A stretch of DNA of 64,000 nucleotides from an uncultured Alphaproteobacteria bacterium (GTDB lineage Bacteria > Pseudomonadota > Alphaproteobacteria > RF32 > CAG-239), in the NCBI GenBank assembly GCA_944391505.1, contig CALXTV010000001.1, forward strand, positions 203,952-267,951, written 5' to 3'. Positions 4,106 to 28,010 of the stretch are shown piece after piece. Each line of letters starts with the position of its first letter. Within the stretch, counting starts at the first letter, position 1. Made by a program: the position numbers and the translations under genes. The notes below the pieces were generated by a model that ran no database searches, had not been told where the DNA came from, and saw only the letters and a program-made list of their open reading frames with translations.

Positions 4106-4602
4106 TTATGCACAAAAACACGTTTGGCTGTGTATAAATAAGCCTCCTGAGATATTTATATAGATTAATCACCACAAAGTAAAATCTAATATACAACTTT
4201 ACTAACAGGTGGATAACTTTAGGCACAGAGGTTGATAAAAACACTTATCAACAAAAAGCCCTTTTTCCGGTTTACAAAATCAGCAAAAATAAAATTAACG
4301 ATTCGTTAATCATGCTTAATTTTCGTTAACAAATTTATTAACACATTTTTAACTTCTGGATATTTCTGTTCAAAAATAATAATCCACATTTGCCGCAGGG
4401 ATATACCAATAACTACTAAACTTTTTAAAATTTATTATAGAGAGGTTTGACTGTGCATAAAAATCAGACAACATTTAATTGACTTTACCTTATTTAAATC
4501 ATATAAAATAACCACGCATTAATTCTGCAAAGTAACAATGCAGAGGGGTTCTTCCCTCACCTTCACTTACATATACACATCAAATACATATTCAAGGTCA
4601 CA

Positions 4603-6356: not shown

Positions 6357-8192
6357 ATGAGCAAATACAGTCAGGCGGTCATCGCCAAAAAACCCGAATT
6401 TTCCTACCTTGATACCGATGCCCCGTTAAGAAACACTTACGGAGACGGCACCGTCAATACCTACAATCCGCAGATTTTTCCTTATGCCGAAAGTTTTATG
6501 CGTACAATTCTGAAACGTGTTAACGATACCTATGCCGCCGTTGTTGAAGACGAACACCGGCAAATGCTTTGCCGAGAGCTTTATAGGCAGTTGAAACATG
6601 ATTTCCGCTTTGATTTTTCCGATCACCTCGGACCGATGCGTCAGCGTGACAAACGCGGCGCCGAAGCTGTTGTTGAAGAGAATGATTATAATATGTTCCA
6701 TTCCTGTTATAAGTTTGTCAATCAGGCAGCACGGGCGCATAGTTTTGGCGAAAAGTTCAACCTGTCGCTGATGTCCGGCCGTGTCAATACCGACAATCAG
6801 ACCGGTCCGGAAATTTGTGATCCTTTTGTTTTTGGGCCGCCGCTTTATCTCTACAGCAAAATTTATCCGAAAGTTGTCGCCATGACTTTGCCCGGTTTTG
6901 ACACGCCTGAAAAAATATCGGCACTCAAAGCACATGAAAAAGAAATGAAAAAAGATATGTTTGCCAAAAAATCTTTGGCGGCAAAAGCTCTGAAGGCCCG
7001 CTGGCATCATCTGATAAATAAGGAATTTATGCCGCAGAATATGGAATTTAAGGACTTAAGCATAAATACCGTCAAGGCTCTTTCCGAACTGCACAAAGAT
7101 GTTTTGACCGAGTTTTCCGCTCAGGTTGAGCAACAGTTTCAAAATGATGTCCGTATGTTGAAAAAAATAATGAAACTGCTGGATAAACAGATGACCTACA
7201 ATAAGGCTAAAGGAACGCCGGAAAATGAATTGGCCTCGTTGCAGTTGGCGTCCGTCCATGCCATGCAGGCCAACGATTTGCTGAAGAACAGTTCGGTAAT
7301 TCAGGTCAGTATTGAAGCAGAAAAGCCGATATTTGCTTTTATGGCCGATGTTCTTGATAATCCGCAGTCGCTTACTGCACGGATTTTTGACAATCCGCAA
7401 ACCCGAACAGTTTTTGAAACTGAAATGAAAAAAATTCATACGACCAAATCGGACAGTAAGTATACGCATCTGCTTGATCATATGGTACCGGCCGGTTCGG
7501 GAAAAATGCCGGCCTATGCCAAAATGCTCGGCGACGAATACGGCGAAGAAATGAACAGAAAACAAATTGCCGAAGCTTTGCGCAGCGGCGAAGCAATGCC
7601 TAAAGTTTCGTTTATGCTGGCCGTTGTTTTGCTGGAAACCGGTGCCAAAATCGAGGGGGGCAGTTCGCAGATTGTTTATGCCCGCCGGATTAAAGAGGCT
7701 TTGGGAAAAGTTTTTGACGAAGCCGTGCGCCAGCCTGGTTTTGACCGGAAGGATATAGACGCCCGCCGCGCCGTAATTGAAAAATTTGATTACAGGACGG
7801 CACAGGCGCAAATCTGGGGTGTTAAAGAAAACGGCAATGTATTGGGTTACCGCGATTTAATCAACGGTAGCGTTAAAATAGATGACAACCTGCTCGATTC
7901 TGTTGCTTCTGTTTCTTCCCGTGCTGCTTTTGACGCTGCTTCCGTCCATCGTTTTTATTCTTTTGTGACCGGTGAACCGATGTCAGAAAATGAAAAGGCG
8001 GCACAGAAAGAAAGAGTTAAAGGAAACCTGCTTCGTTTTGCCGACAATGATGATTTTACCCGCATTTTAGCACCCGGCAGCACTTTTTACAAAAGACTGT
8101 CCATGATAATCAGAAATGATGAAAATGTTCTCGGCCGTCAGGCACAGAAGGCTTATGCTTTTAACAAATATCAGTCGGCGGCGGGATTCTGA
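6357..8192 (+). CDS. hypothetical protein, 611 aa, no signal peptide and no recognisable motif
   Basis: Long clean ORF preceded by AAAAGAGAAATAAAATG. Translationally coupled (2-nt gap) to the downstream S66 peptidase gene. I recognise no Walker, HExxH or other motif. Confidence 0.7.
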   Translation: MSKYSQAVIAKKPEFSYLDTDAPLRNTYGDGTVNTYNPQIFPYAESFMRTILKRVNDTYAAVVEDEHRQMLCRELYRQLKHDFRFDFSDHLGPMRQRDKRGAEAVVEENDYNMFHSCYKFVNQAARAHSFGEKFNLSLMSGRVNTDNQTGPEICDPFVFGPPLYLYSKIYPKVVAMTLPGFDTPEKISALKAHEKEMKKDMFAKKSLAAKALKARWHHLINKEFMPQNMEFKDLSINTVKALSELHKDVLTEFSAQVEQQFQNDVRMLKKIMKLLDKQMTYNKAKGTPENELASLQLASVHAMQANDLLKNSSVIQVSIEAEKPIFAFMADVLDNPQSLTARIFDNPQTRTVFETEMKKIHTTKSDSKYTHLLDHMVPAGSGKMPAYAKMLGDEYGEEMNRKQIAEALRSGEAMPKVSFMLAVVLLETGAKIEGGSSQIVYARRIKEALGKVFDEAVRQPGFDRKDIDARRAVIEKFDYRTAQAQIWGVKENGNVLGYRDLINGSVKIDDNLLDSVASVSSRAAFDAASVHRFYSFVTGEPMSENEKAAQKERVKGNLLRFADNDDFTRILAPGSTFYKRLSMIIRNDENVLGRQAQKAYAFNKYQSAAGF

Positions 8193-9122: not shown

Positions 9123-9857
9123 TTAATAATTTTTAATTTCCAGTCTTTTTATTTCCGAAAAACCGGTTGACAAAGTAAACCCGGTCAAAACCCTTAATTG
9201 CGTATTCGAATTAATATCGCGGATTTTGGGATATTTTATCGGACTGATTCCAAGAATTTTACCCGGAATTTTTACCACATAAATTGTATTACCGTCTATA
9301 ATTTCCTTGTCCCAGCTTATAACCCGGACATATTCTGTTTTTGCAAAAAGAATATCTTCTTTTTCTTTCATTTCCTTATTCATGGTGTTAATTGCAAAAA
9401 TGATAAATATTATCATATTGACAAGGAGAGAAGCCTCGTAACCGTTAAACCGTGTGTGTTTGCCTGAGCTAAGAGATAAACGATGTTTTACATAATTAAG
9501 TTTAAGCAGATACGAAACATAAGGAATACAGCAATACAAAACAATATTGAAAATCAAGGCAACGGCCAAAGCTATGAGAAATACCGGAATAACATGCAAA
9601 AATAAGACATACATACCGAAATTGATCAGAGACCAGCCTAACCTGACCCAAACGCTTTCAATTTCAACATTGGCGAATTGTAACCTGATGAACATAAGCG
9701 CCGAAATAAAAATACCGGTTAATGCCGGAAATATATTATCTGGCCAGGTAGTCCAAACACAGATAAGACAAAATAAGACAGCTAATCCGCAGAAAATATA
9801 TTCTCCGTGGTCTTTCCAAATCGTGGCAAACTTTTTGCCGTAAATCTTAGTTTCCAT
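9123..9857 (-). CDS. integral membrane protein (4-5 N-terminal TM helices plus a ~90-aa C-terminal soluble domain)
   Basis: 244 aa. Hydrophobic N-terminal two thirds; C-terminal AKTEYVRVISWDKEIIDGNTIYVVKIPGKILGISPIK soluble region. No family assigned. Confidence 0.6.
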   Translation of the reverse strand: METKIYGKKFATIWKDHGEYIFCGLAVLFCLICVWTTWPDNIFPALTGIFISALMFIRLQFANVEIESVWVRLGWSLINFGMYVLFLHVIPVFLIALAVALIFNIVLYCCIPYVSYLLKLNYVKHRLSLSSGKHTRFNGYEASLLVNMIIFIIFAINTMNKEMKEKEDILFAKTEYVRVISWDKEIIDGNTIYVVKIPGKILGISPIKYPKIRDINSNTQLRVLTGFTLSTGFSEIKRLEIKNY

Positions 9858-10794: not shown

Positions 10795-12138
10795 ATGGAT
10801 AATCAGACCATTTATGCGCTTTCGACCGTTTACGGAAAATCCGGTGTTGCCATAATCCGCATTTCCGGAAAAGATGCTCTTTCGGCCGTTTCCGAACTGA
10901 CAACATTGAATGTTGAAAATTTGAAACCGCGCTATGCCTATTTTACCAATGTTCGCGACATTGTTTCACGGGAAACATTGGATAAGGCTCTGCTGCTTTA
11001 TTTTAAAGCGCCGGCCTCTTTTACCGGGGAAGATATTGTCGAACTTCAGCTTCATGGTTCACGGGCCGTAATTTCGTCGGTCTTGGACAATCTTGGCCGT
11101 CTGAACAATTTTCGTCTTGCCGAACCCGGCGAATTTTCCAGACGGGCTTTTTATAACGGCAAAATGGATTTGACCGAAGCCGAAGGGCTTGCCGACCTGA
11201 TTGATTCTGAAACTTCCGAACAGCAGAAATATGCCATGAGGCAAATGGAAGGAAACCTGAAAAACCTTTATGACGGCTGGCGCGAAGATTTGATAAAAAT
11301 TCTAGCGTATCTTGAAGCTTATATTGATTTTCCCGATGAAGACATTCCACAGGAACTTGTTGATAAACTTTTGAACGATGTATTTAAACTTCAATCGGCC
11401 ATAAATGAACATTTGAACGGTGATTCAGTCGGCGAAAGACTGCGTGAAGGTTTTCGGGTTGTTATTGTCGGTCCGCCAAATGCCGGCAAGTCAAGTCTGC
11501 TGAACGCTGTTGTCAATCGAGATGCTGCCATTGTTTCTTCCGTTGCCGGCACAACGCGTGATGCCGTTGATGTTCATCTCGACATTAAGGGTTATCCCGT
11601 AATGTTTACAGACACGGCCGGTATTCGCGAAGTCGAAGAAGAAATAGAAAAACAGGGTATCGAGATTGCCTTCCGTAAAATTGCCGACGCTGATTTGGTG
11701 ATATGTTTGTTTGATGCTTCAAAAGACTCTGTTCACATCTTTGATAATATTAAAAATTCTTTTAAAAACAAGGAAGTATATGTTGCCAATAAATCCGACA
11801 ATTTAACTTTTGAACAATGTTCAGATCTGCGTAAACAGGGCTGCGTTGTCATCTCTGCCAAACACAAAAAAGGAATATCCGATTTAACGGATGTTATTTA
11901 TAGGCAAATACACGGGCGTTTTACTTCAAATTCCGGACTTCTTATCTCGCGTCGGCGCTATAGAGAGGCTCTGGAAGAAACTTTGAATAATTTGCAACGT
12001 TTTAATTTTAACAAAGAAATAGAACTTTCGGCAGAAGATATACGTCTGGCCGCCAGAGCGCTTGGAAAGATAACCGGCCGAATTGAAGTTGAAGATATCT
12101 TAAATAAAATATTCGGCAGCTTTTGTATCGGAAAATAA
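10795..12138 (+). CDS. mnmE: tRNA modification GTPase MnmE
   Basis: 447 aa. G-domain GPPNAGKSSLLN, DTAGIRE, and a C-terminal CIGK tetrapeptide. Confidence 0.95.
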   Translation: MDNQTIYALSTVYGKSGVAIIRISGKDALSAVSELTTLNVENLKPRYAYFTNVRDIVSRETLDKALLLYFKAPASFTGEDIVELQLHGSRAVISSVLDNLGRLNNFRLAEPGEFSRRAFYNGKMDLTEAEGLADLIDSETSEQQKYAMRQMEGNLKNLYDGWREDLIKILAYLEAYIDFPDEDIPQELVDKLLNDVFKLQSAINEHLNGDSVGERLREGFRVVIVGPPNAGKSSLLNAVVNRDAAIVSSVAGTTRDAVDVHLDIKGYPVMFTDTAGIREVEEEIEKQGIEIAFRKIADADLVICLFDASKDSVHIFDNIKNSFKNKEVYVANKSDNLTFEQCSDLRKQGCVVISAKHKKGISDLTDVIYRQIHGRFTSNSGLLISRRRYREALEETLNNLQRFNFNKEIELSAEDIRLAARALGKITGRIEVEDILNKIFGSFCIGK

Positions 12139-12212: not shown

Positions 12213-12578
12213 ATGGAACAAAATTTTTCAGATGGGTTGGAGCTGCTCATCAAAAAACACATTTCTGTCGCCGAGCCTGCGGAACTCATATCTGAACCGG
12301 ACAGCAATCTGCGCAAAATATTTAAGGACTTTGTTGAAAAAGCGCAGGAAAAAATGTTATCTATCTATTGCTATTCGCCGGAACTTGATAAAGAGCTGGT
12401 TGAGTTGCAAACAGAGATGAAGCATGTTATTGCCGCGCTTGGAAGAATTCGTCCCGGTTATCTGCAGTATTTAGCTTATCGCGACGTGTTGTCTGTTTGT
12501 GTCTTCTGCCCCTATGTAATTCCACGTCAGGAGATTTACGAAGTCTTTCAAAAAGGCTTAAAAGGACAGGTTTATTGA
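12213..12578 (+). CDS. hypothetical protein (121 aa)
   Basis: ORF between mnmE and mnmG with no recognisable domain. Confidence 0.4.
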   Translation: MEQNFSDGLELLIKKHISVAEPAELISEPDSNLRKIFKDFVEKAQEKMLSIYCYSPELDKELVELQTEMKHVIAALGRIRPGYLQYLAYRDVLSVCVFCPYVIPRQEIYEVFQKGLKGQVY

Positions 12579-12698
12579 AAACGAAATCCGGTTTAACCGC
12601 ATGGTTAGGCCGGATTTTGCTTTTAAATGAAGCCTCTTATTAACGGCTTACTAATATTTTCATGCTAAAATACAACAAATAATAAAATCGAGACGATA

Positions 12699-14552
12699 AT
12701 GAGAAAAGGTTCTGATTTTGATGTCATTGTAGTCGGTGGCGGTCATGCCGGTTGTGAAGCCTGCGCTGCTGCAGCCCGTATGGGTGCCGCAACGCTTTTG
12801 ATTACGCACCGATTGGATACGATTGGCGAAATGTCCTGTAACCCGGCCATCGGAGGTTTGGGAAAAGGACATCTTGTTCGTGAAATAGATGCGCTTGACG
12901 GGCTGATGGGACGGGTTATAGACAAAGCCGGGATTCAGTTCCGTATGTTAAACGCTTCCAAGGGACCGGCAGTCAGAGGTCCGCGCGCGCAGGCAGATCG
13001 GGATTTATACAAAAAATATATGTTCGAAGCCCTACGGAATCAAAAAAATATTTCTTTGCGCGAAGCCGCAGTCGAAGGCTTGTTGATTGATAACGGTTGC
13101 GTAACCGGTGTCAGGCTTGCCGATGGTTCAGAAATTCATGCGGCCGCTGTTGTCCTCACCACCGGAACTTTTTTGAACGGGGTAATGTTTGTCGGTCATG
13201 AAGCAACGCCGGGCGGCCGTGTCGGTGATGCCGCCTGCACCGGTATAACACCGTATTTAAAGTCATTGGGGCTCAAAATCGGTCGCCTGAAAACCGGAAC
13301 GCCGGCTCGTCTGAATGGTAAAACCATTAACTGGAGCATTCTTGAAGCTCAGGACGGCGATGAAAATCCGCAGCCCTTTTCTTATCTGACCGATAAAATT
13401 ACCAATCCGCAAATTCAGTGTTACATAACCCACACAAATGAAAAAACGCACGAAATTATTCGTGATAACTTTTCAAAATGTGCTTTGTTTTCCGGATTGA
13501 TTACCGGTGTTGGGCCGCGTTATTGTCCGAGCATTGAAGACAAACTTGTCAAATTTGCCGATCGAACCAGCCATCAGATATTTCTAGAACCGGAAGGCTT
13601 AAATACCGATGTTGTCTATCCGAACGGTATCTCAACGTCCCTGCCCGCAGATGTTCAGGATCAGTTTATTCACACAATGAAAGGTCTTGAGAATGTCGAA
13701 ATTTTACGCTTTGCCTATGCCATTGAATATGATTACGTCGATCCACAGGAGCTGAATCATACTTTGGCCGTTAAAAAAGTTCCTGGATTATTTCTTGCCG
13801 GACAGATTAACGGTACGACCGGCTATGAAGAGGCTGCGGCACAAGGTTTATTGGCCGGTGTTAATGCCGCCTTATTGGCCGAGGGAAAAGGACGGGAATT
13901 TTTCATTGACCGGAGCATGGCTTATCTTGGTGTTATGGTAGACGACTTAATTACCAAAGGCGTCGACGAGCCGTACCGAATGTTTACCTCTCGGTCGGAA
14001 TATCGTCTGTTTCTGCGGGCAGACAATGCTGATGCCCGTCTGACGGAAATCGGGTATAAAACAGGTTGTGTCAGTGAAAACAGATACAGTGTATTTAAAG
14101 CCAAATATGAACAGATTAACCATTATCATAAACTCTGCGATCAACTTTATATTACGCCGAACGAACTTGAAAAATATAATATCCATACCAAAAAAGACGG
14201 CACCAGACGAACAGCCTTTAATGTTATGTCATATGACGGTGTTTCACGTGAAACAATAGAAAACATTTTTCCCGGTCTTAAAGGTATTCCGGCCGATGTT
14301 TATGAACAAATAGAAATTGAAGCCCGCTATGCCGGTTATATCAAACGCCAGATGGCCGATATAGAAGTGTTTAAAAAAGATGAGAATCTGAAACTGCGCA
14401 GTGATATTGACTATGCAAAAATTGGCGGACTTTCGCGGGAAATGGTAGCAAAGCTGAGCAAAGTTCGGCCTGTAACCATTGGTGAAGCCTCGCGAATACC
14501 AGGTGTAACGCCTGCCGCGATTACAGCCGTTTTAAGCTATGTTAAGAGGTGA
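12699..14552 (+). CDS. mnmG: tRNA uridine 5-carboxymethylaminomethyl modification enzyme MnmG (GidA)
   Basis: 617 aa. FAD-binding [14 protein letters not shown] at the N-terminus. The 3' end contains a parS site. Confidence 0.96.
14240..14255. promoter_or_regulatory. parS centromere site (TGTTTCACGTGAAACA) inside the mnmG 3' end
   Basis: Perfect 16-bp palindrome identical to the canonical ParB-binding parS consensus. Confidence 0.85.
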
Positions 14553-14554
14553 AA

Positions 14555-15172
14555 ATGACTTGCCCGAGTATAAAACAAGCTCTGGATTTATTTGATGAAG
14601 GTTTGGCTGTCATGCGAAAAGAGCAGCCGCGTTTTGCCTTTTACTGTGAAAAATCTTTTCGCAGTCACTGTTGCCTGGTTGCCTGTTGTGCGGAAATGAT
14701 AGCTTCCCGCATAGATAATATTGACGGGCAAAAAGCTTATATATTGGGACTGTTGCACGATTACGGAAAAATGATGCGTGACGCCGACAATAAAGAATAT
14801 TTCCACGGATTGACCGGTTATAACGAAATGAACCGTCTTGGTTATGATGAAGTTGCCCGTGTCTGTCTGACCCATACTTTCCCGGATAAGGATTTTAAAT
14901 ACACCGAATACAGCTATCCGGAAATGCGTAAAACAAAAAAATTATTGGCACAGGTAGATTATGACGATTATGACCGACTTATCCAGCTTTGCGATTTGCT
15001 GGTTGTTGGTATGAATTTTTCTAAAATAAAAGACCGCATGATATTCGTAAAAGACAAATACAGAGTTTCGACAATGGTCATCAAGCGCCGCTATCGTCAG
15101 GCCCTGCGTTTGAAAAATTATTTCGATCGTCGTTGTGGTTGCAACATCTATCGTTTGCTTGGAATCAATTAA
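14555..15172 (+). CDS. HD-domain phosphohydrolase, YqeK-like (paralog 1)
   Basis: GQKAYILGLLHDYGK closely resembles the YqeK Ap4A-hydrolase HD motif (PEKAYLAGLLHDIAK). ~205 aa. An alternative GTG start at 14549 overlaps the mnmG stop. Confidence 0.7.
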   Translation: MTCPSIKQALDLFDEGLAVMRKEQPRFAFYCEKSFRSHCCLVACCAEMIASRIDNIDGQKAYILGLLHDYGKMMRDADNKEYFHGLTGYNEMNRLGYDEVARVCLTHTFPDKDFKYTEYSYPEMRKTKKLLAQVDYDDYDRLIQLCDLLVVGMNFSKIKDRMIFVKDKYRVSTMVIKRRYRQALRLKNYFDRRCGCNIYRLLGIN

Positions 15173-15792
15173 TGAACGAGAATATTTGTCCTACTGTTAA
15201 AGAAGCGGTAAATTTTTGGCTCAAGGGAATTAAATATCGTCAGGAGGAAGACGGTTTTTCCCTAAAAGACGAGTATATTTTTCACACCCAGGGCATAGCT
15301 TTTGTTGCTCGGATTATCGCTTCGCATATTCCGGACATGAATCCGGAAAAAGCATATATATGCGGCCTTTTGCACGATTATGGCAAAAAATACGATGAAA
15401 AGAAAATCGGTCGTTTCCATGGCCTTATCGGTTATCATGAATTGCAGGCTGAGGGTTTTTCTCTTCCGGCAAGAATTTGCCTGACGCACACTTTTCCCGA
15501 AAAGAAAATTCTTTTTTCCGATTTTCCGTCATATCCGCAAAAGGATCTTGAAGAGTGCCAAAAAATATTGAACGAGTTGGAATATAACGATTATGACCGG
15601 CTGATACAATTTGCCGACCGGCTTTTTGAAGGCCTTTCAATGGTTCCTTTTGCTGAGCGGGCAAAAGCCATAGGTGAGCGTTATCATTTGTCTGAATCAA
15701 TTGTCAACAAACTGATAGCAGACGGTCAAAAGCTTAAAGATTTTCTGGATAAACGCTGCGGTATGGATATATATAAAATAATAGGCCTCTGA
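15173..15792 (+). CDS. HD-domain phosphohydrolase, YqeK-like (paralog 2)
   Basis: 206 aa. PEKAYICGLLHDYGK, ARICLTHTFPEK and YNDYDRLIQ are colinear with paralog 1 (~40% identity by eye). The ATG follows the paralog-1 stop directly. The ORF-track start at 15133 was rejected. Confidence 0.7.
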
Positions 15793-15793
15793 T

Positions 15794-16612
15794 ATGCAAA
15801 AGTTTTCTTACCACACCCACACAAACAGTTTTGGTGTTTTTGACGGACACAATTCTGCCGAAGAAATGATTTCTGCAGCTGAATCCATCGGTTATACCGA
15901 ACTCGGCATTTCCAATCATCTTATCTGTAAAAAAGAATGCAGCAGCTTTTCGCCGCAGTTTTTTGATAATTTTCAAAAGGCGGAAACGGTGTATTTAAAA
16001 AACATAGAAGAAATAAGAAGCGCCGCACAAAAAAATAAGATTAAAGTTTATGTCGGTTTTGAAGTCGATTATTTTAAGTCTGCCGAATGGCGTCGCTGTT
16101 TTGAAAAACTCCGCAGCCGTTTGGACGTTGATTATCTGATAGGCTCGACACATTGTTTGATGAACAGCGATGCAAGTTGGATACTTAATATTTATGAGAT
16201 GAATCGCAAACCGATTATTGTTGACGAAGAAACCAAACGGGAAGGCATTAAAAATTATTGGCTGAATATTATTGAATCAATAAAAAGCGGCTATTTTGAT
16301 TTTATTGCGCATCTTGACGTCATCAAAATTTTTGGAATGGGATTGGAACCGGAATGGGACGAGTATAAATGGAAAGTAATAGAAGCCCTGACCGAAACAA
16401 AACACCCCTACGAACTGAATACAAGTGGATGGACAAAGGCCGGTGAACAACACCCGCACACATGGATGCTCAGGGAACTGTCAAATCGCAACGTTCCGAT
16501 TGTTATCAGCGATGATGCGCATTCAACCTCAATGTTGGCTCGAAATTTTTCCGAAGCCGAAAAACTTTTGGCCGATCTCAATTACAAAAGCCGTTGGAAA
16601 TTACATAAGTAA
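15794..16612 (+). CDS. PHP-domain phosphoesterase (histidinol-phosphatase HisJ family)
   Basis: N-terminal SYHTHTNSFGVFDGH PHP metal-binding motif. 272 aa. The ATG is 1 nt after the HD paralog-2 stop. Confidence 0.75.
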   Translation: MQKFSYHTHTNSFGVFDGHNSAEEMISAAESIGYTELGISNHLICKKECSSFSPQFFDNFQKAETVYLKNIEEIRSAAQKNKIKVYVGFEVDYFKSAEWRRCFEKLRSRLDVDYLIGSTHCLMNSDASWILNIYEMNRKPIIVDEETKREGIKNYWLNIIESIKSGYFDFIAHLDVIKIFGMGLEPEWDEYKWKVIEALTETKHPYELNTSGWTKAGEQHPHTWMLRELSNRNVPIVISDDAHSTSMLARNFSEAEKLLADLNYKSRWKLHK

Positions 16613-16755
16613 ATCAATTAAATTTATAATATTTTGATTCAAGAAACGCTGTGTAACTTGTTGTTTTAAGAGTCATTTTAAAATAAATACTTTTTTGTGT
16701 TTATAACTGCCGAATTTGGGTTTTAAATTTATTTGAAAAATTATATAAATATTTT

Positions 16756-17385
16756 ATGGAAAATTTTATGGTCAAATATAATGTTTCACGTGAAACATTT
16801 GAGCGTTTAAAAACTTATGAAACATCTCTTCAAGAGTGGCAACATAAGTTCAATTTAGTCAGCAATGCTTCGTTGGAAAATGCCTGGGAACGGCATTTTC
16901 TTGACTCGGCTCAGCTTTACAAATTTATTCCGTCTGAGGCCAAAACAGTTATGGATTTTGGCTCTGGAGCTGGATTTCCGGGAATGGTGCTGGCGATAAT
17001 GGCTGCTGAAAAAACACCGTATTTAAATTTTCGTCTTGTTGAAAGTATTGGTAAAAAAACACTGTATTTAAATGAAGTGAAAAAAATAACCGGTATTAAT
17101 AACGTCGAGATAATAAATGAGCGTATTGAAAATATTAGAACAACTCCGGTTGACGTTATCACTTCCCGCGCAATGTGTTCTCTAAAGGAACTTTTAAGTT
17201 ATGCCGTAAAGTTTGCCGATAAAAATACGGTCTGCATTTTTCCGAAAGGTCGAAAATATAATGAAGAAATTTCCGAAGCCCGAAAAGCGTGGTCGTTTGA
17301 CTGTCACGCTGTGCCGAGTGAAGTAAGCGCTGAAGGGGCGATTTTAATTGTTACCAAAATAAAAAAGCTTAAAGGAGTTAGATAA
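16756..17385 (+). CDS. rsmG: 16S rRNA (guanine527-N7)-methyltransferase RsmG (GidB)
   Basis: 209 aa. DFGSGAGFPGMVLAI SAM motif. The 5' end contains a parS site. Confidence 0.93.
   Translation: MENFMVKYNVSRETFERLKTYETSLQEWQHKFNLVSNASLENAWERHFLDSAQLYKFIPSEAKTVMDFGSGAGFPGMVLAIMAAEKTPYLNFRLVESIGKKTLYLNEVKKITGINNVEIINERIENIRTTPVDVITSRAMCSLKELLSYAVKFADKNTVCIFPKGRKYNEEISEARKAWSFDCHAVPSEVSAEGAILIVTKIKKLKGVR
16782..16797. promoter_or_regulatory. parS centromere site (TGTTTCACGTGAAACA) inside the rsmG 5' end
   Basis: Perfect 16-bp palindrome, identical to the site at 14240. Confidence 0.85.
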
Positions 17386-18165
17386 ATGCCAAGAATAATT
17401 GCTATAGCGAATCGTAAAGGCGGTGTGGGCAAAACCACCACCACGGTCAACGTTGCAACGGCCATGGCCGCCGCTGGCAAAAAGGTTTTGGTTGTTGACC
17501 TTGACCCGCAGGGAAATGCAACGACGTCAATGGGAATTAATAAAAGTGGCCGGATGGCATCTTCCTACGAAGTTCTTTTAGGCGAAAAAAGAATTAACGA
17601 AGCCGTTGTCTGGACCGAAATTCCGAATTTTTCACTCGTTCCATCGTCGCCTGACCTGGCCGGTGCCGAAGTTGAGCTTGTCGATGTCGAACATCGTGAG
17701 TTTGCTTTGCGCAATGCTTTGGGTAAAGATGTTGTCAATTACGATTACGTTTTAATCGACTGCCCGCCGTCCTTAAGCCTGGTAACCATCAATGCCTTGG
17801 TTGCTGCCGATGCGGTAATTGTTCCTTTGCAGTGCGAATTTTTAGCATTGGAAGGCATTACCGACCTCATTCGCAACATCAATCAGATAAAAAAGAAATT
17901 CAACCCGAAACTTGAATTACAGGGCGTAGTTCTGACCATGTACGACAAACGCAATAATTTGTCACAGATGGTTGAAGATGATGTTCGCAGCTTTTTCGGC
18001 AAGAAGGTATATCAAACCGTCATTCCCAGAAACGTTCGTGTTTCGGAAGCGCCTTCTCACGGCAAACCGGTTTTGATTTATGATTTCAGATGCCCGGGAG
18101 CGCAGGCTTATATCAGCCTCACCGGTGAAGTATTAAAAAGAGAAAAGGAATTGTTGGCATGTTAG
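17386..18165 (+). CDS. parA: chromosome partitioning ATPase ParA
   Basis: 259 aa. Deviant Walker A KGGVGKTTT. Confidence 0.95.
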   Translation: MPRIIAIANRKGGVGKTTTTVNVATAMAAAGKKVLVVDLDPQGNATTSMGINKSGRMASSYEVLLGEKRINEAVVWTEIPNFSLVPSSPDLAGAEVELVDVEHREFALRNALGKDVVNYDYVLIDCPPSLSLVTINALVAADAVIVPLQCEFLALEGITDLIRNINQIKKKFNPKLELQGVVLTMYDKRNNLSQMVEDDVRSFFGKKVYQTVIPRNVRVSEAPSHGKPVLIYDFRCPGAQAYISLTGEVLKREKELLAC

Positions 18166-19187
18166 AAAACGGAAGTCTTGACGAATTGGATATTCTGGCC
18201 GAAACCGGCAAACATGAAGAACATCAGCACGGAAACAAAAGAAAAAGTCTCGGTCGCGGTTTGGGTGCTTTGTTGGGCGATGATGAGTTTAACATAGACG
18301 AGGCCTTAAACGATACGCCGGCGCAACCCGTTCGTCCGGCAGACGATGAAGTCGATGTAAATCTCCTTTATCCAAGCCCTTTTCAGCCGCGTAAGGACTT
18401 TGACGAAGAAGCCCTCAATGCTTTGGTTGAATCCGTCAAAGAAAAAGGCATACTGCAGCCGCTTTTGGTTCGCAAGAAAAATGATCGTTATGAGATTATC
18501 GCCGGCGAACGCCGCTGGCGCGCGTCCAAATTAGCCGGCCTCAAAACGGTTCCGGTTATTGTCAAAGAAATGGACGATAAAGAAGTTCTGGAAGTTGCTT
18601 TGGTTGAAAATCTGCTGCGCGAGAATCTTTCAGCCATTGAAGAAGCGGAAGGTTTTCAACGGCTTATTGACGAATTTTCTCACACACAGGAAGCACTTGC
18701 CCAGATTGTCGGAAAATCACGCAGTCATGTCGCTAATACGCTTCGCCTGCTTAGTCTGCCTGAATCCGTAAAAAATATGGTTCGTGAAGGTACGCTGTCC
18801 GCCGGTCATGCGCGTGCTCTGGTAGGTTTGGATAATGCCGAAGCTTTGGCCAAACAGATCGTGTCCAAAGATCTGAATGTCCGTCAGGTAGAAGAATTGG
18901 TTGCTAAACAAAAAAATCCGGAACCTAAAGAACCCAAAAAAACCAAAGATGAAGATATTGTTGAAATTGAAAAGGATTTGAACAAGCATCTCGGTCTGCG
19001 GATTAAAATATCGCCGAGCAAGCAGGGCGGCGGCAAAGTTGTTTTGCAATATGCTTCTGCGGCAGAGTTGGATATGATTATTGATATTCTGGAACAAAAA
19101 CGCAAAACGGCCGCAGCAATACCGGCTGCATCAACGGATGCGGATATGTCCGGAAACGAAAAATTTACAATGAAAATAATAGATTAA
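18159..19187 (+). CDS. parB: chromosome partitioning protein ParB
   Basis: 342 aa. ParB-box GERRWRA, an HTH region, and a 7-nt overlap with parA. Confidence 0.95.
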   Translation: MLENGSLDELDILAETGKHEEHQHGNKRKSLGRGLGALLGDDEFNIDEALNDTPAQPVRPADDEVDVNLLYPSPFQPRKDFDEEALNALVESVKEKGILQPLLVRKKNDRYEIIAGERRWRASKLAGLKTVPVIVKEMDDKEVLEVALVENLLRENLSAIEEAEGFQRLIDEFSHTQEALAQIVGKSRSHVANTLRLLSLPESVKNMVREGTLSAGHARALVGLDNAEALAKQIVSKDLNVRQVEELVAKQKNPEPKEPKKTKDEDIVEIEKDLNKHLGLRIKISPSKQGGGKVVLQYASAAELDMIIDILEQKRKTAAAIPAASTDADMSGNEKFTMKIID

Positions 19188-19210: not shown

Positions 19211-19246
19211 GCCCCGTTGAATCTTTCGACGGGGTTTCTTTTATTT
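19211..19246 (+). terminator. intrinsic terminator after parB
   Basis: GC-rich hairpin CCCCGTTGAA....TTCGACGGGG followed by a TTTCTTTTATTT tract. Confidence 0.7.
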
Positions 19247-19424
19247 CGGACAGATAAAGGCAGTCAAAATATAATATTGCCGATATTTACTCCTTTTTAA
19301 GAGCTTTTTTGTAATCTGAAGCAAATTACATATATTTATGCCGAAATTTGTCGCACAGAATAGCTTGGAAAATTTTCAATCTTGTGCTCTAATCAAAGCA
19401 AATAACATAAAGGAAAGATACGAC

Positions 19425-20408
19425 ATGGTTTTTCTGAAAAAAGCGCTTCTGGGGCTTGGTGCCTTAATCCTGATTTTTATCGGTGGCAGCGGAACGCAGA
19501 GCAACAGCATTTTGCTGCAGGGCGGCGGTTTCATCGGTCTTATCATCGGTTTGGTCGTGCTTTATATTTTCGGCAAAATGGCTTGGAGAGCCATGGGGTG
19601 TCTGCCGTCCTTTCTGGTTGTTACGTCGATTCTTGCCTTTATCCTTTATGCCATTGGTGGTTTTAACAATGGCGTCGGCGGTATCGGTCAGTCATTAAGG
19701 AGTTTTTTGGGTATGCAGGCCAATTCGCATCAGCAGACACCGCAGAATGCCCAGTCAATGTTGGTAGAAGAAGAATATACGGAGGCAATCGACGAAAACT
19801 TTTCTTCCGATATAGGCTCACAGGTGTCGCCTCAAACTCAGGAAGCTCAAAAACCGAATGCTTTTCAGCAATTTATGAGTTCTCTCGGCGGACAGCCGGA
19901 AGCAGCGGCTCTCGCATTAAATCCGAATAATTTCCCTGCTGTCTACAGTGCTGCCCGCGTTATCAACGGTGATACACTCGAGATTCAGGGCAGCTACTTC
20001 CGACTTTATGGCATTGACGCACCGGAAGCTAATCAGAGCTGTGCCGATCGTCAGGGACGTTCATATAACTGTGGCCGGGAAGCGGCACTATGGCTGAAAA
20101 ACTGGATTACCACCAACGAACTTGAGTGTCATGTTATGCAGCAAGATGCCAAAGGTAATATGGTTGGAACCTGTTCGCTCGGACAATATGATCTTGGCGC
20201 GGCTCTGGTTAATGCCGGCTGGGCGGTAGCTTATCAAAAATATACGGATATTTATGTTCCGTACGAACGCCAGGCACAAATGAACAAACGGGGTCTCTGG
20301 CAAGGAACTTTTTATATGCCTTGGGATTGGCGAGCCATGCAGGGTAAAAAGCCGAAAATCAAGGTTATCAAGCCGAAAGTCCGCAGAAAAAGCATACTTG
20401 ACTTGTAA
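19425..20408 (+). CDS. membrane-anchored thermonuclease (SNase-like) domain protein
   Basis: N-terminal TM helices, a Q/S-rich linker, and a C-terminal SNc-like domain (VINGDTLEIQGSYFRLYGIDAPE...RGLWQG). Start chosen at the ATG with an AAGGAAAG RBS; an alternative start is at 19338. Confidence 0.7.
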   Translation: MVFLKKALLGLGALILIFIGGSGTQSNSILLQGGGFIGLIIGLVVLYIFGKMAWRAMGCLPSFLVVTSILAFILYAIGGFNNGVGGIGQSLRSFLGMQANSHQQTPQNAQSMLVEEEYTEAIDENFSSDIGSQVSPQTQEAQKPNAFQQFMSSLGGQPEAAALALNPNNFPAVYSAARVINGDTLEIQGSYFRLYGIDAPEANQSCADRQGRSYNCGREAALWLKNWITTNELECHVMQQDAKGNMVGTCSLGQYDLGAALVNAGWAVAYQKYTDIYVPYERQAQMNKRGLWQGTFYMPWDWRAMQGKKPKIKVIKPKVRRKSILDL

Positions 20409-27841: not shown

Positions 27842-27917
27842 CCCGAAAATGTTGATTTGTTTATTTTTCCCTTGAAAAAAGGGATAAAAAAAACGATATT
27901 AAAATAAGTTTTTTATT

Positions 27918-28010
27918 GGAGGGCGGCGGGTTAATTTTCCGCCAACCCGGTCAGGTCCGGAAGGAAGCAGCCGTAACGGAAGCGATTAAGGTCGCCCGCT
28001 CTCCGCCTCT
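27918..28010 (+). ncRNA. ffs: signal recognition particle RNA (4.5S RNA)
   Basis: Contains the conserved SRP domain IV sequence GGUCAGGUCCGGAAGGAAGCAGCC. Terminal helix GGAGGGCGGCGGG / CCCGCUCUCCGCCUC. Located immediately upstream of dnaX, a common position. Confidence 0.88.

Follow-up and report, generated by a model that had tools for sequence, protein, structure and literature searches.

MnmG (GidA) is an enzyme of cmnm5 synthesis at U34 of tRNA, and RsmG (GidB) is the 16S rRNA m7G527 methyltransferase. YqeK (COG1713 / TIGR00488) is the HD-domain symmetric Ap4A hydrolase of Firmicutes. In HD-Pnk of Runella slithyformis, an HD 2',3'-phosphoesterase is fused to a 5'-OH polynucleotide kinase. 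Histidinol-phosphate phosphatase catalyzes step 8 of histidine biosynthesis. Homologs of ApaH are at work in Gram-negative bacteria, and Nudix hydrolases occur universally (PMC10148737). In Mycoplasma, NadD carries a fused YqeK domain that acts as a versatile nucleotide diphosphatase, and the clustering or fusion of yqeK with nadD is the source of the neighbourhood criterion by which the genes described here were compared with yqeK (PMC9426524).

The window, a stretch of 64,000 nucleotides from an uncultured alphaproteobacterium, carries a cassette of ordinary enzyme kinds joined to the 3' end of mnmG; this cassette is clade-wide, real, and selected (Table 1). As originally predicted, three tightly packed genes for metal-dependent phosphohydrolases lie between mnmG and rsmG, as seen in the open reading frame (ORF) listing and in Pfam HD and PHP matches. 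The ORF listing and direct reading of the sequence place the HD1 start 2 nt past the mnmG stop codon, a 1-nt overlap between the HD1 stop and the HD2 start (TAATG), and a 1-nt gap between HD2 and PHP. HD1 and HD2 had also been proposed to be colinear paralogs, and their alignment runs over the full length with 37% identity (E 1e-49). The HD motif quoted in the original prediction is exact in HD2 (PEKAYICGLLHDYGK), but HD1 departs from it and reads GQKAYILGLLHDYGK.

Table 1. Features of the mnmG–parB region, in positions of the window.
Feature	Position	Strand	Remarks
Terminator-like hairpin, 17-pair stem, 3' of orf121	12582..12619	+	likely 5' limit of mnmG transcription unit
mnmG (gidA)	12699..14552	+	TIGR00136, 841 bits vs cutoff 525; Pfam GIDA; cassette joined to 3' end
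HD1, HD-domain hydrolase, 205 aa, HD1-type lineage	14555..15172	+	PF01966, E 1.5e-8
HD2, HD-domain hydrolase, 206 aa, HD2-type lineage	15172..15792	+	PF01966, E 9.5e-10
PHP-domain phosphatase, HisJ/HisK type, 272 aa	15794..16612	+	PF02811, E 3.7e-16
AT-rich spacer, 143 nt, before rsmG	16613..16755	+	blocks conserved among relatives
rsmG (gidB)	16756..17385	+	TIGR00138, 145 bits vs cutoff 99.5
parA (17386-18165), parB (18159-19187)	17386..19187	+	3' of rsmG
Terminator-like hairpin 3' of parB	19211-19235		

This gene string recurs unchanged in independent metagenome assemblies (L001–L006). Across these strains the pN/pS ratio is 0.00 for HD1, 0.15 for HD2, and 0.12 for PHP, with similar values for the flanking housekeeping genes. 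The three intact ORFs, their recurrence in independent assemblies, and the low pN/pS therefore establish real, selected genes, and all three are under purifying selection. A recent horizontal insertion was rejected, since the GC content of the cassette (0.38–0.43) is not below that of rsmG or mnmE and the cassette is clade-wide. A role in defence was also rejected: PADLOC returned weak Cas3-HD motif matches for HD1 only and none for HD2, PHP, or orf121. No terminator-like site was found between mnmG and PHP, the only hairpins being the two in Table 1. Because there is no internal terminator and the first HD gene overlaps mnmG by 4 nt in roughly every second relative, the HD and PHP genes are probably co-transcribed with mnmG, which would make their expression constitutive and origin-proximal.

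The original prediction had presented the insertion as peculiar, but synteny comparison finds this mnmG–rsmG slot occupied by HD genes, PHP genes, or both in 51 species-level gut alphaproteobacterial assemblies. Among the 45 loci with a complete mnmG–rsmG interval, the slot holds one HD domain in 19, two in 21, and three in 5, and the PHP gene is absent from 9, single in 28, and doubled in 7. With one to three HD and zero to two PHP copies in relatives, the window therefore has the commonest architecture (two HD and one PHP) and no private insertion. In 41 of the 51 loci the first slot gene starts no more than 10 nt from the end of mnmG, with a 4-nt overlap in 26. The cassette's seeming universality carries a bias, because the loci were collected through the HD protein; only two MnmG-based look-ups were informative, the list of MnmG homologs being saturated at at least 81% identity. 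These two look-ups retrieved an abundant relative with HD-HD and no PHP (L087) and a locus with PHP and no HD (L089), so the HD and PHP functions would be separable and an obligate HD plus PHP module does not hold. NUDIX genes are present in the same slot in two loci (L011 and L052). Homologs in the slot bear no annotation beyond "HD domain-containing protein" and "PHP domain-containing protein", and a literature search on the mnmG/rsmG–HD arrangement found nothing relevant.

HD1 and HD2 score 35.3 and 39.2 bits, respectively, against PF01966 (gathering cutoff 22), and a conserved H...HD...D pattern places them in the HD superfamily. The AF2 model of HD2 is all-helical (pLDDT 95.7). Each of the residues H38, H68, D69, H83, H106, D142, D149, and R163 is found in 87 or more of 88 HD copies, and K72 is nearly invariant in a 33-sequence alignment (A1), with arginine in some relatives, so that both paralogs retain an H...HD..K...H...H...D two-metal site. 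No specific Pfam or NCBIfam model matches either protein, the best being generic HD, HDIG, and the C-terminal HD parts of NF045665 and PRK07152. The nucleotidyltransferase-HD model NF045665 (DVU_1551 family) gives the widest coverage among curated models (residues 32–194 of HD1 against positions 215–358, E 4.5e-7), but scores against it and against PRK07152 (NadD-HD) fall far under their cutoffs (29 vs. 315 bits), and the nucleotidyltransferase domain is missing from HD1 and HD2. Membership in HDOD (PF08668) was rejected: the scores of 27.6 bits for HD1 and 32 bits for HD2 exceed the cutoff of 22.9, but the matches are partial, lying inside profile positions 83–155 of 196, overlapping the HD match, and covering only about 50–64 positions around the HD motif. 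Unlike HDOD, HD-GYP, and PgpH-type HD proteins, HD1 and HD2 lack a GYP motif and carry neither a transmembrane nor a sensor module; the full catalytic ligand set is kept. A profile search of 1.84e9 proteins (E <= 1e-3) collected 1,258 subfamily representatives, mostly from gut anaerobes. HD1 and HD2 thus belong, by their sequences, to a small HD subfamily without a curated model or characterised member. In a neighbour-joining tree without support values, on which the HD1-type and HD2-type placements also rest, single-copy loci keep the HD2-type lineage.

Members of the subfamily are fused to NUDIX (3 cases), MazG, NT5C, DHH-DHHA2, and an AAA_33 P-loop kinase, and because of these partners nucleotide substrates are suggested for the subfamily. 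Other partners are GNAT (4 cases), a GDSL lipase, peptidase S51, SUKH, and DUF3795. This heterogeneity counts against a nucleotide-hydrolase account, as do the Clostridia homologs, which have no conserved neighbourhood but an assortment of GNAT, methyltransferase, ASCH, HAD, and NUDIX genes; the Clostridia neighbourhoods were accordingly set aside as a functional clue. Three loci carry in-frame HD-HD fusions, of 441 aa (L011), 439 aa (L047), and 411 aa (L052). They come from metagenome-assembled genomes, in which assembly or frameshift errors could in principle produce them, though there are three independent cases. In the subfamily profile search, two proteins (P0121 and P0122) were each matched in two stretches. 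The conserved columns of alignment A2 all fall within the second domain of P0121, so its first domain is almost without alignment depth.

We lean, with a confidence little better than even, toward a clade-wide cassette linked to mnmG in which HD nucleotide hydrolases and a separate PHP phosphomonoesterase would be co-transcribed with mnmG. HD1 and HD2 would probably use divalent metals to hydrolyse phosphoester or phosphoanhydride bonds of nucleotides, and turnover of the nucleotide pool or "house-cleaning" would fit them better than alarmone signalling. The nucleotide or alarmone module of the original prediction thus survives in part: a nucleotide-directed role is plausible from the fusion partners, but an obligate pairing of HD with PHP is contradicted by the two loci that carry one without the other. 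Since in-frame fusion of two copies is seen in independent genomes, the paralogs probably act jointly as a heteromer or else divide substrate specificities. PHP is probably a separate phosphomonoesterase; it may act on a product made by the HD enzymes, or it may be a phosphatase of the histidinol-phosphate type.

A different account of the locus begins with PHP. This protein scores 60.3 bits against PF02811 (cutoff 26.4) and has all nine trinuclear-site ligands (HxH, D, H, E, H, H, DxH), and 95% or more of 50 copies keep each of H7, H9, D17, H42, E90, H120, H173, D241, and H243. Its closest relatives are the HisJ/HisK-type histidinol-phosphate phosphatases, to which it compares in length, ligands, and fold: its only sequence matches in the PDB are histidinol phosphatases (2yxo, E 8e-13 by sequence and 7.8e-17 by profile search), and the top eight Foldseek matches are all HisJ/HisK enzymes at TM 0.68–0.77 (2yxo at E 1.4e-16 and TM 0.74–0.77, then 3dcp, 6nlr, and 4gyf), followed by YcdX and the PolX PHP domain. 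Some homologs also carry the JGI name "histidinol phosphate phosphatase hisJ family". The three genes might therefore be unrelated passengers, PHP being the histidinol-phosphate phosphatase of the organism and the HD genes a separate matter, with no functional meaning in their co-location, and the occurrence of HD and PHP apart from each other agrees with this. We nevertheless consider it unlikely, as PHP falls just under the TIGR01856 cutoff (85.5 vs. 90.2) and under those of PRK07328 (109.4 vs. 202) and PRK08123 (69.9 vs. 133), shares only 17–26% identity with these enzymes, and has homologs that NCBI names only "PHP domain-containing protein"; the part of the window that is annotated (about 1–26 kb) showed no his genes, and the locus holds zero to two PHP copies of two diverged types, one of them fragmented (L025). 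The original prediction had likened the HD proteins to YqeK, and they could on that reading be symmetric Ap4A/NpnN hydrolases that stand in for ApaH and regulate a dinucleoside-polyphosphate alarmone. They do resemble YqeK in being stand-alone HD proteins of about 200 aa with the same ligand order (H, HD, K, H, H, D) and an identical GLLHDY-K motif, and H38, H68, D69, K72, and H83 align with His29, His58, Asp59, Lys62, and His91 of Streptococcus pyogenes YqeK (YqeK residues from PMC11857287). From the motif order, H106 and D142/D149 may be the counterparts of its His117 and Asp135. This ligand set is common to other HD families and is therefore not diagnostic of YqeK. TIGR00488 gives HD1 15.8 bits (E 0.0099; cutoff 70.15), with no stretch passing by itself, and does not match HD2 at E <= 0.01. 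Sequence matches in the PDB span about 45 residues around the motif, and Foldseek gives no fold match at E <= 1e-3; its best hits, at TM of about 0.4, include YqeK (about 135 of 206 residues superposed at 15–22% identity), but HD-GYP, HDOD, and PgpH score equally, so the fold does not discriminate. The next histidine follows the HD pair after 14 residues in HD1 and HD2 vs. 32 in YqeK, and the roughly 10 kb to each side of HD1 contain no nadD, nor was a nadD/rsfS neighbourhood found. For a single housekeeping Ap4A hydrolase, one to three diverged, sometimes fused copies per genome would moreover be out of the ordinary. The YqeK assignment was accordingly rejected and its Ap4A role appears improbable; GLLHDYGK alone does not mean YqeK, which corrects a tempting mis-annotation.

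The stable position beside mnmG across the clade could be a sign of a functional connection with tRNA modification. The HD proteins might act on RNA or tRNA, for example as 2',3'-cyclic phosphodiesterases or 3'-phosphatases that heal ends, or might take a U34-modification intermediate as substrate, in a manner coupled to MnmE/MnmG. One subfamily protein (P0198) pairs an N-terminal HD domain with a C-terminal P-loop kinase, and by layout alone it has the two-domain arrangement of HD-Pnk; the kinase is, however, missing from the HD proteins of the window and present in only 1 of 20 multidomain relatives. Homologs in Clostridia and other phyla do not lie beside mnmG or any RNA-modification gene, no MnmG-HD fusion was found among the best 150 of the 1,258 representatives, and the slot accepts other genes, because one locus holds PHP alone. 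We therefore hold a role on RNA to be decidedly improbable. A narrower form, in which a tandem HD heteromer would act on tRNA or on an intermediate or by-product of MnmE–MnmG, the clade-wide translational coupling to mnmG reflecting an undescribed accessory step of U34 modification in gut Alphaproteobacteria, seems very improbable; the heteromer might, for example, strip the ends of tRNA of a phosphate or cyclic phosphate, or process a breakdown product of a modified nucleotide. The chance is slighter still for a cyclic-dinucleotide pair, in which HD would linearise c-di-AMP or c-di-GMP, as PgpH and HD-GYP proteins do, and PHP would degrade the linear product. Against this, neither HD protein contains the GYP motif (HHExxDGxGYP) in its sequence or in the conserved columns, or a 7TM or sensor domain; PHP is of the HisJ/HisK small-molecule phosphatase type, and no exoribonuclease-type PHP scored better; the fusion partners of the subfamily are mononucleotide enzymes; and HD and PHP occur apart.

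The analysis defines a small HD-domain subfamily of about 1,258 representatives, which a clade of abundant uncultured gut Alphaproteobacteria has fixed beside mnmG and then repeatedly duplicated, fused, or lost. Because of this history, the subfamily is a tractable target for a new HD substrate specificity. The fusions to NUDIX, MazG, NT5C, and pyrophosphatase-type DHH-DHHA2 domains narrow the candidate substrates, and the natural HD-HD fusions are a ready-made construct. Current knowledge of Ap4A metabolism and of tRNA modification is not overturned by the cassette.

In loci with a complete interval, the spacer before rsmG is 83–248 nt long in relatives, and its blocks are conserved whether the gene upstream is PHP or HD. 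No terminator-like site was found in the spacer of the window, which probably serves rsmG-parAB as a promoter or regulatory region. No DnaA boxes were found in it; those of the window cluster at 4106–4460.

The layout in which a cassette of two tandem HD-domain paralogs (HD1 and HD2) and a PHP-domain phosphatase gene (PHP) lies tightly packed between mnmG and rsmG, as claimed in the original prediction, is borne out by coordinates and family matches. The mnmG/HD1 gap is 2 nt, HD1 and HD2 overlap by 1 nt (TAATG), the HD2/PHP gap is 1 nt, and an AT-rich spacer of 143 nt precedes rsmG. The HD proteins had also been rightly read as colinear paralogs, aligning end to end with 37% identity (E 1e-49). 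Contigs assembled independently from metagenomes (L001-L006, all the same species) have identical gene order, and variation among them is mostly synonymous, with pN/pS of 0.00 for HD1, 0.15 for HD2, and 0.12 for PHP (mnmG, 0.17; rsmG, 0.20). This mostly synonymous polymorphism argues that all three are functional genes.

Features of the window and of homologous loci
Feature	Sequence	Coordinates	Strand	Details
DnaA-box cluster	window	4106-4460		between coaE/dnaQ and rho
ORF	window	6357-8192	+	611 aa
ORF	window	9123-9857	-	244 aa
mnmE	window	10795-12138	+	
orf121	window	12213-12578	+	121 aa
terminator-like hairpin	window	12582-12619		17-pair stem; 3' of orf121
mnmG	window	12699-14552	+	TIGR00136, 841 bits
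HD1	window	14555-15172	+	205 aa; PF01966
HD2	window	15172-15792	+	206 aa; PF01966
PHP	window	15794-16612	+	272 aa; PF02811
spacer	window	16613-16755		upstream of rsmG
rsmG	window	16756-17385	+	TIGR00138
parA, parB	window	17386-19187	+	
terminator-like hairpin	window	19211-19235		3' of parB
SNase-domain protein	window	19338-20408	+	356 aa; downstream of parB
small bacterial SRP RNA	window	27915-28010	+	RF00169, 64.7 bits
in-frame HD-HD fusion	L011	5296-6621		441 aa
in-frame HD-HD fusion	L047	5941-7260		439 aa
in-frame HD-HD fusion	L052	5371-6606		411 aa
extra slot genes	L011	3220-5283; 7104-7682		
extra slot gene	L042	6677-8101		
extra slot genes	L052	1816-3937		
orf121-like ORF	L087	6462-6845		127 aa

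The cassette had been presented as an unusual insertion, a view that synteny in relatives does not support. Using tblastn and ORF reading of fetched loci from 51 alphaproteobacterial species-level assemblies, the mnmG-rsmG interval was found to hold HD and/or PHP genes, with parA-parB after rsmG, in 51 of 51, a sample biased by having been reached through the HD protein. Two look-ups started from MnmG are free of that bias. One reached an abundant relative (2.04-Mb contig, GCA_965643355.1; 919 collection blocks index its MnmG) with mnmG-HD-HD-rsmG and no PHP, and the other a relative with mnmG-PHP-rsmG and no HD. Because each occurs without the other, HD and PHP are separable functions that share one slot. 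Over the 45 loci with a complete mnmG-rsmG interval, there are one (19 loci), two (21), or three (5) HD domains and no (9), one (28), or two (7) PHP genes, PHP being fragmented in the remaining locus, L025; two HD plus one PHP, as in the window, is the commonest layout (15/45). The PHP pieces of L025 are 108, 78, and 69 aa and those of a third HD in L040 are 89 and 116 aa, suggesting ongoing pseudogenization, or assembly errors, inside the cassette. Further slot genes in some relatives encode NUDIX (~189 aa), EPSP-synthase/MurA-like (474-483 aa), and, on the opposite strand, flavodoxin-like proteins; the EPSP-synthase/MurA-like gene lies directly upstream of PHP, 2-3 nt apart, in L042, L044, and L050. 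Locus L052 (JAISVX010000001.1) is titled 'Lactobacillaceae bacterium', a label that is probably wrong, judging by its alphaproteobacterial layout and by MnmG, RsmG, ParA, and ParB 63-82% identical to those of the window.

In a neighbor-joining tree without support values, the HD paralogs fall into at least three lineages, and the HD2 type is the copy kept where a single HD remains. The window's HD1 clusters there with the second HD copy of most other genomes; gene order has therefore been swapped in this lineage. At least 87 of 88 aligned HD copies carry each of the residues H38, H68, D69, H83, H106, D142, D149, and R163, so all paralogs look catalytically competent. A profile of 33 members, searched against 1.84 billion cluster representatives, retrieved 1,258 at E <= 1e-3 and 128 at E <= 1e-30; the subfamily is small. 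Its species-level carriers are gut/rumen MAGs labeled Alphaproteobacteria or 'uncultured Azospirillum', together with Clostridia, Lachnospiraceae, Ruminococcus, Gastranaerophilales, and Saccharibacteria, whose homologs are single-copy and more distant (31-41% identity). Around the latter homologs no conserved neighborhood was found, only mixed GNAT, methyltransferase, ASCH, HAD, and NUDIX genes.

In 41/51 loci, the mnmG stop and the first cassette gene are within 10 nt of each other, and in 26/51 they overlap by 4 nt, spacing that suggests translational coupling to mnmG. Between the hairpins downstream of orf121 and parB only weak terminator-like sites occur, the total of such sites being no greater than in shuffled sequence. 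The spacer upstream of rsmG holds blocks invariant in five relatives (TTTTGAnTCA, GTGTTTATAA, GTTTTAAATT, and TATAAAT), kept whether PHP or HD is the upstream gene. As a candidate promoter/regulatory region, it thus probably gives rsmG-parAB separate control, in which case the cassette would best be regarded as extending the mnmG unit at its 3' end.

In the best-supported reading, two HD hydrolases of an uncharacterized subfamily and a HisJ-like PHP phosphatase make up a clade-wide cassette that is expressed together with mnmG. These HD enzymes would probably hydrolyze nucleotide phosphoester or phosphoanhydride bonds, possibly as a heteromer; the proposal that the paralogs act jointly is based on the in-frame HD-HD fusions, a Rosetta-stone pattern, and two fused clusters, P0121 (identical to the L052 fusion) and P0122, top the representative search. 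A rival reading, a YqeK-type Ap4A hydrolase, draws on the motif: H38, H68, D69, K72, and H83 align with His29, His58, Asp59, Lys62, and His91 of S. pyogenes YqeK (PMC11857287); motif order is the basis for equating H106 and D142/D149 with its His117 and Asp135. Membership in YqeK, the family originally suggested, is ruled out by TIGR00488 (HD1, 15.8 bits against a cutoff of 70.15; HD2, no match). Because ligand spacing differs and the same catalytic constellation is found in other HD families, HD1 and HD2 appear YqeK-like at the motif level yet lie outside the family. The curated models that fit them best are generic (Pfam HD, HDIG-domain TIGR00277, and, in part and around the HD motif, HDOD), and the C-terminal HD parts of the nucleotidyltransferase-HD fusion families NF045665 and PRK07152 match far below threshold. 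Single-sequence and profile searches of the PDB returned HDOD protein 3hc1 and YqeK 8jja, over only ~45 residues around H...GLLHDxxK. Fold-search matches, each aligning ~130-150 of 206 residues, are spread over HD-GYP (4mcw, score 10.4), a predicted HD hydrolase (2pq7, 10.3), HDOD (3hc1, 10.3), the YqeK-family BH1327 (2o08, 10.1), PgpH (4s1b, 9.9), and YqeK (8wmy, 8.6). Degradation of cyclic dinucleotides by the cassette is a further rival.

The best available clue to the HD substrate class comes from the nucleotide-hydrolase fusion partners. Multidomain members carry NUDIX (3 cases), MazG, NT5C 5'(3')-deoxyribonucleotidase, DHH-DHHA2, and AAA_33 P-loop kinase, besides GNAT (4 cases), GDSL lipase, peptidase S51, SUKH, and DUF3795. 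The HD plus P-loop-kinase member recalls, in its layout, the RNA end-healing enzyme HD-Pnk (PMC6097658). Another rival is MnmEG-coupled processing of RNA or tRNA ends. For PHP, the rival is a plain histidinol-phosphate phosphatase unlinked to the HD genes. All nine metal ligands are conserved (50 copies), and PDB sequence searches matched PHP to histidinol phosphatases alone, namely 2yxo (E 8e-13, or 7.8e-17 with a profile) and 3dcp. The confident predicted structure (pLDDT 95.6) best matches 2yxo (E 1.4e-16, TM 0.74-0.77), then Listeria and Lactococcus HisK, then YcdX and the PolX PHP domain. PHP falls just short of the HisJ-family cutoff (TIGR01856, 85.5 vs. 90.2) and well short of PRK07328, and NCBI labels its homologs only 'PHP domain-containing protein'; PHP may truly be a histidinol-phosphate phosphatase, or else a HisJ-like phosphomonoesterase that acts on a different substrate.

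The enzyme kinds in the cassette are already known, and a full-text literature search found no description of this mnmG-HD/PHP-rsmG arrangement. What is new is seeing that these HD proteins form a distinct subfamily, and that in a gut alphaproteobacterial clade it has a fixed position after mnmG but a dynamic copy number. This helps annotation and offers a target for enzymology, but would not surprise a specialist.

The locus probably adjoins a predicted chromosomal replication origin (oriC), given six clustered near-consensus DnaA boxes (one mismatch), 26 such boxes in the whole window against ~12 expected, and a cumulative GC-skew minimum at about 4-12 kb. The two ORFs between rho and mnmE have no Pfam/NCBIfam match. 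Between mnmE and mnmG, orf121, with no match in Pfam, NCBIfam, or PADLOC, probably encodes a genuine small protein specific to the clade; its variants across strains are 7 synonymous and 1 non-synonymous, and a 35% identical ORF occupies the same position in the abundant relative (L087). No tRNA genes were found over the whole 64 kb, and an SRP RNA gene is present. The protein encoded 3' of parB combines an N-terminal part predicted to be hydrophobic with an SNase (thermonuclease) domain at the C terminus, and is kept at the same position in relatives.
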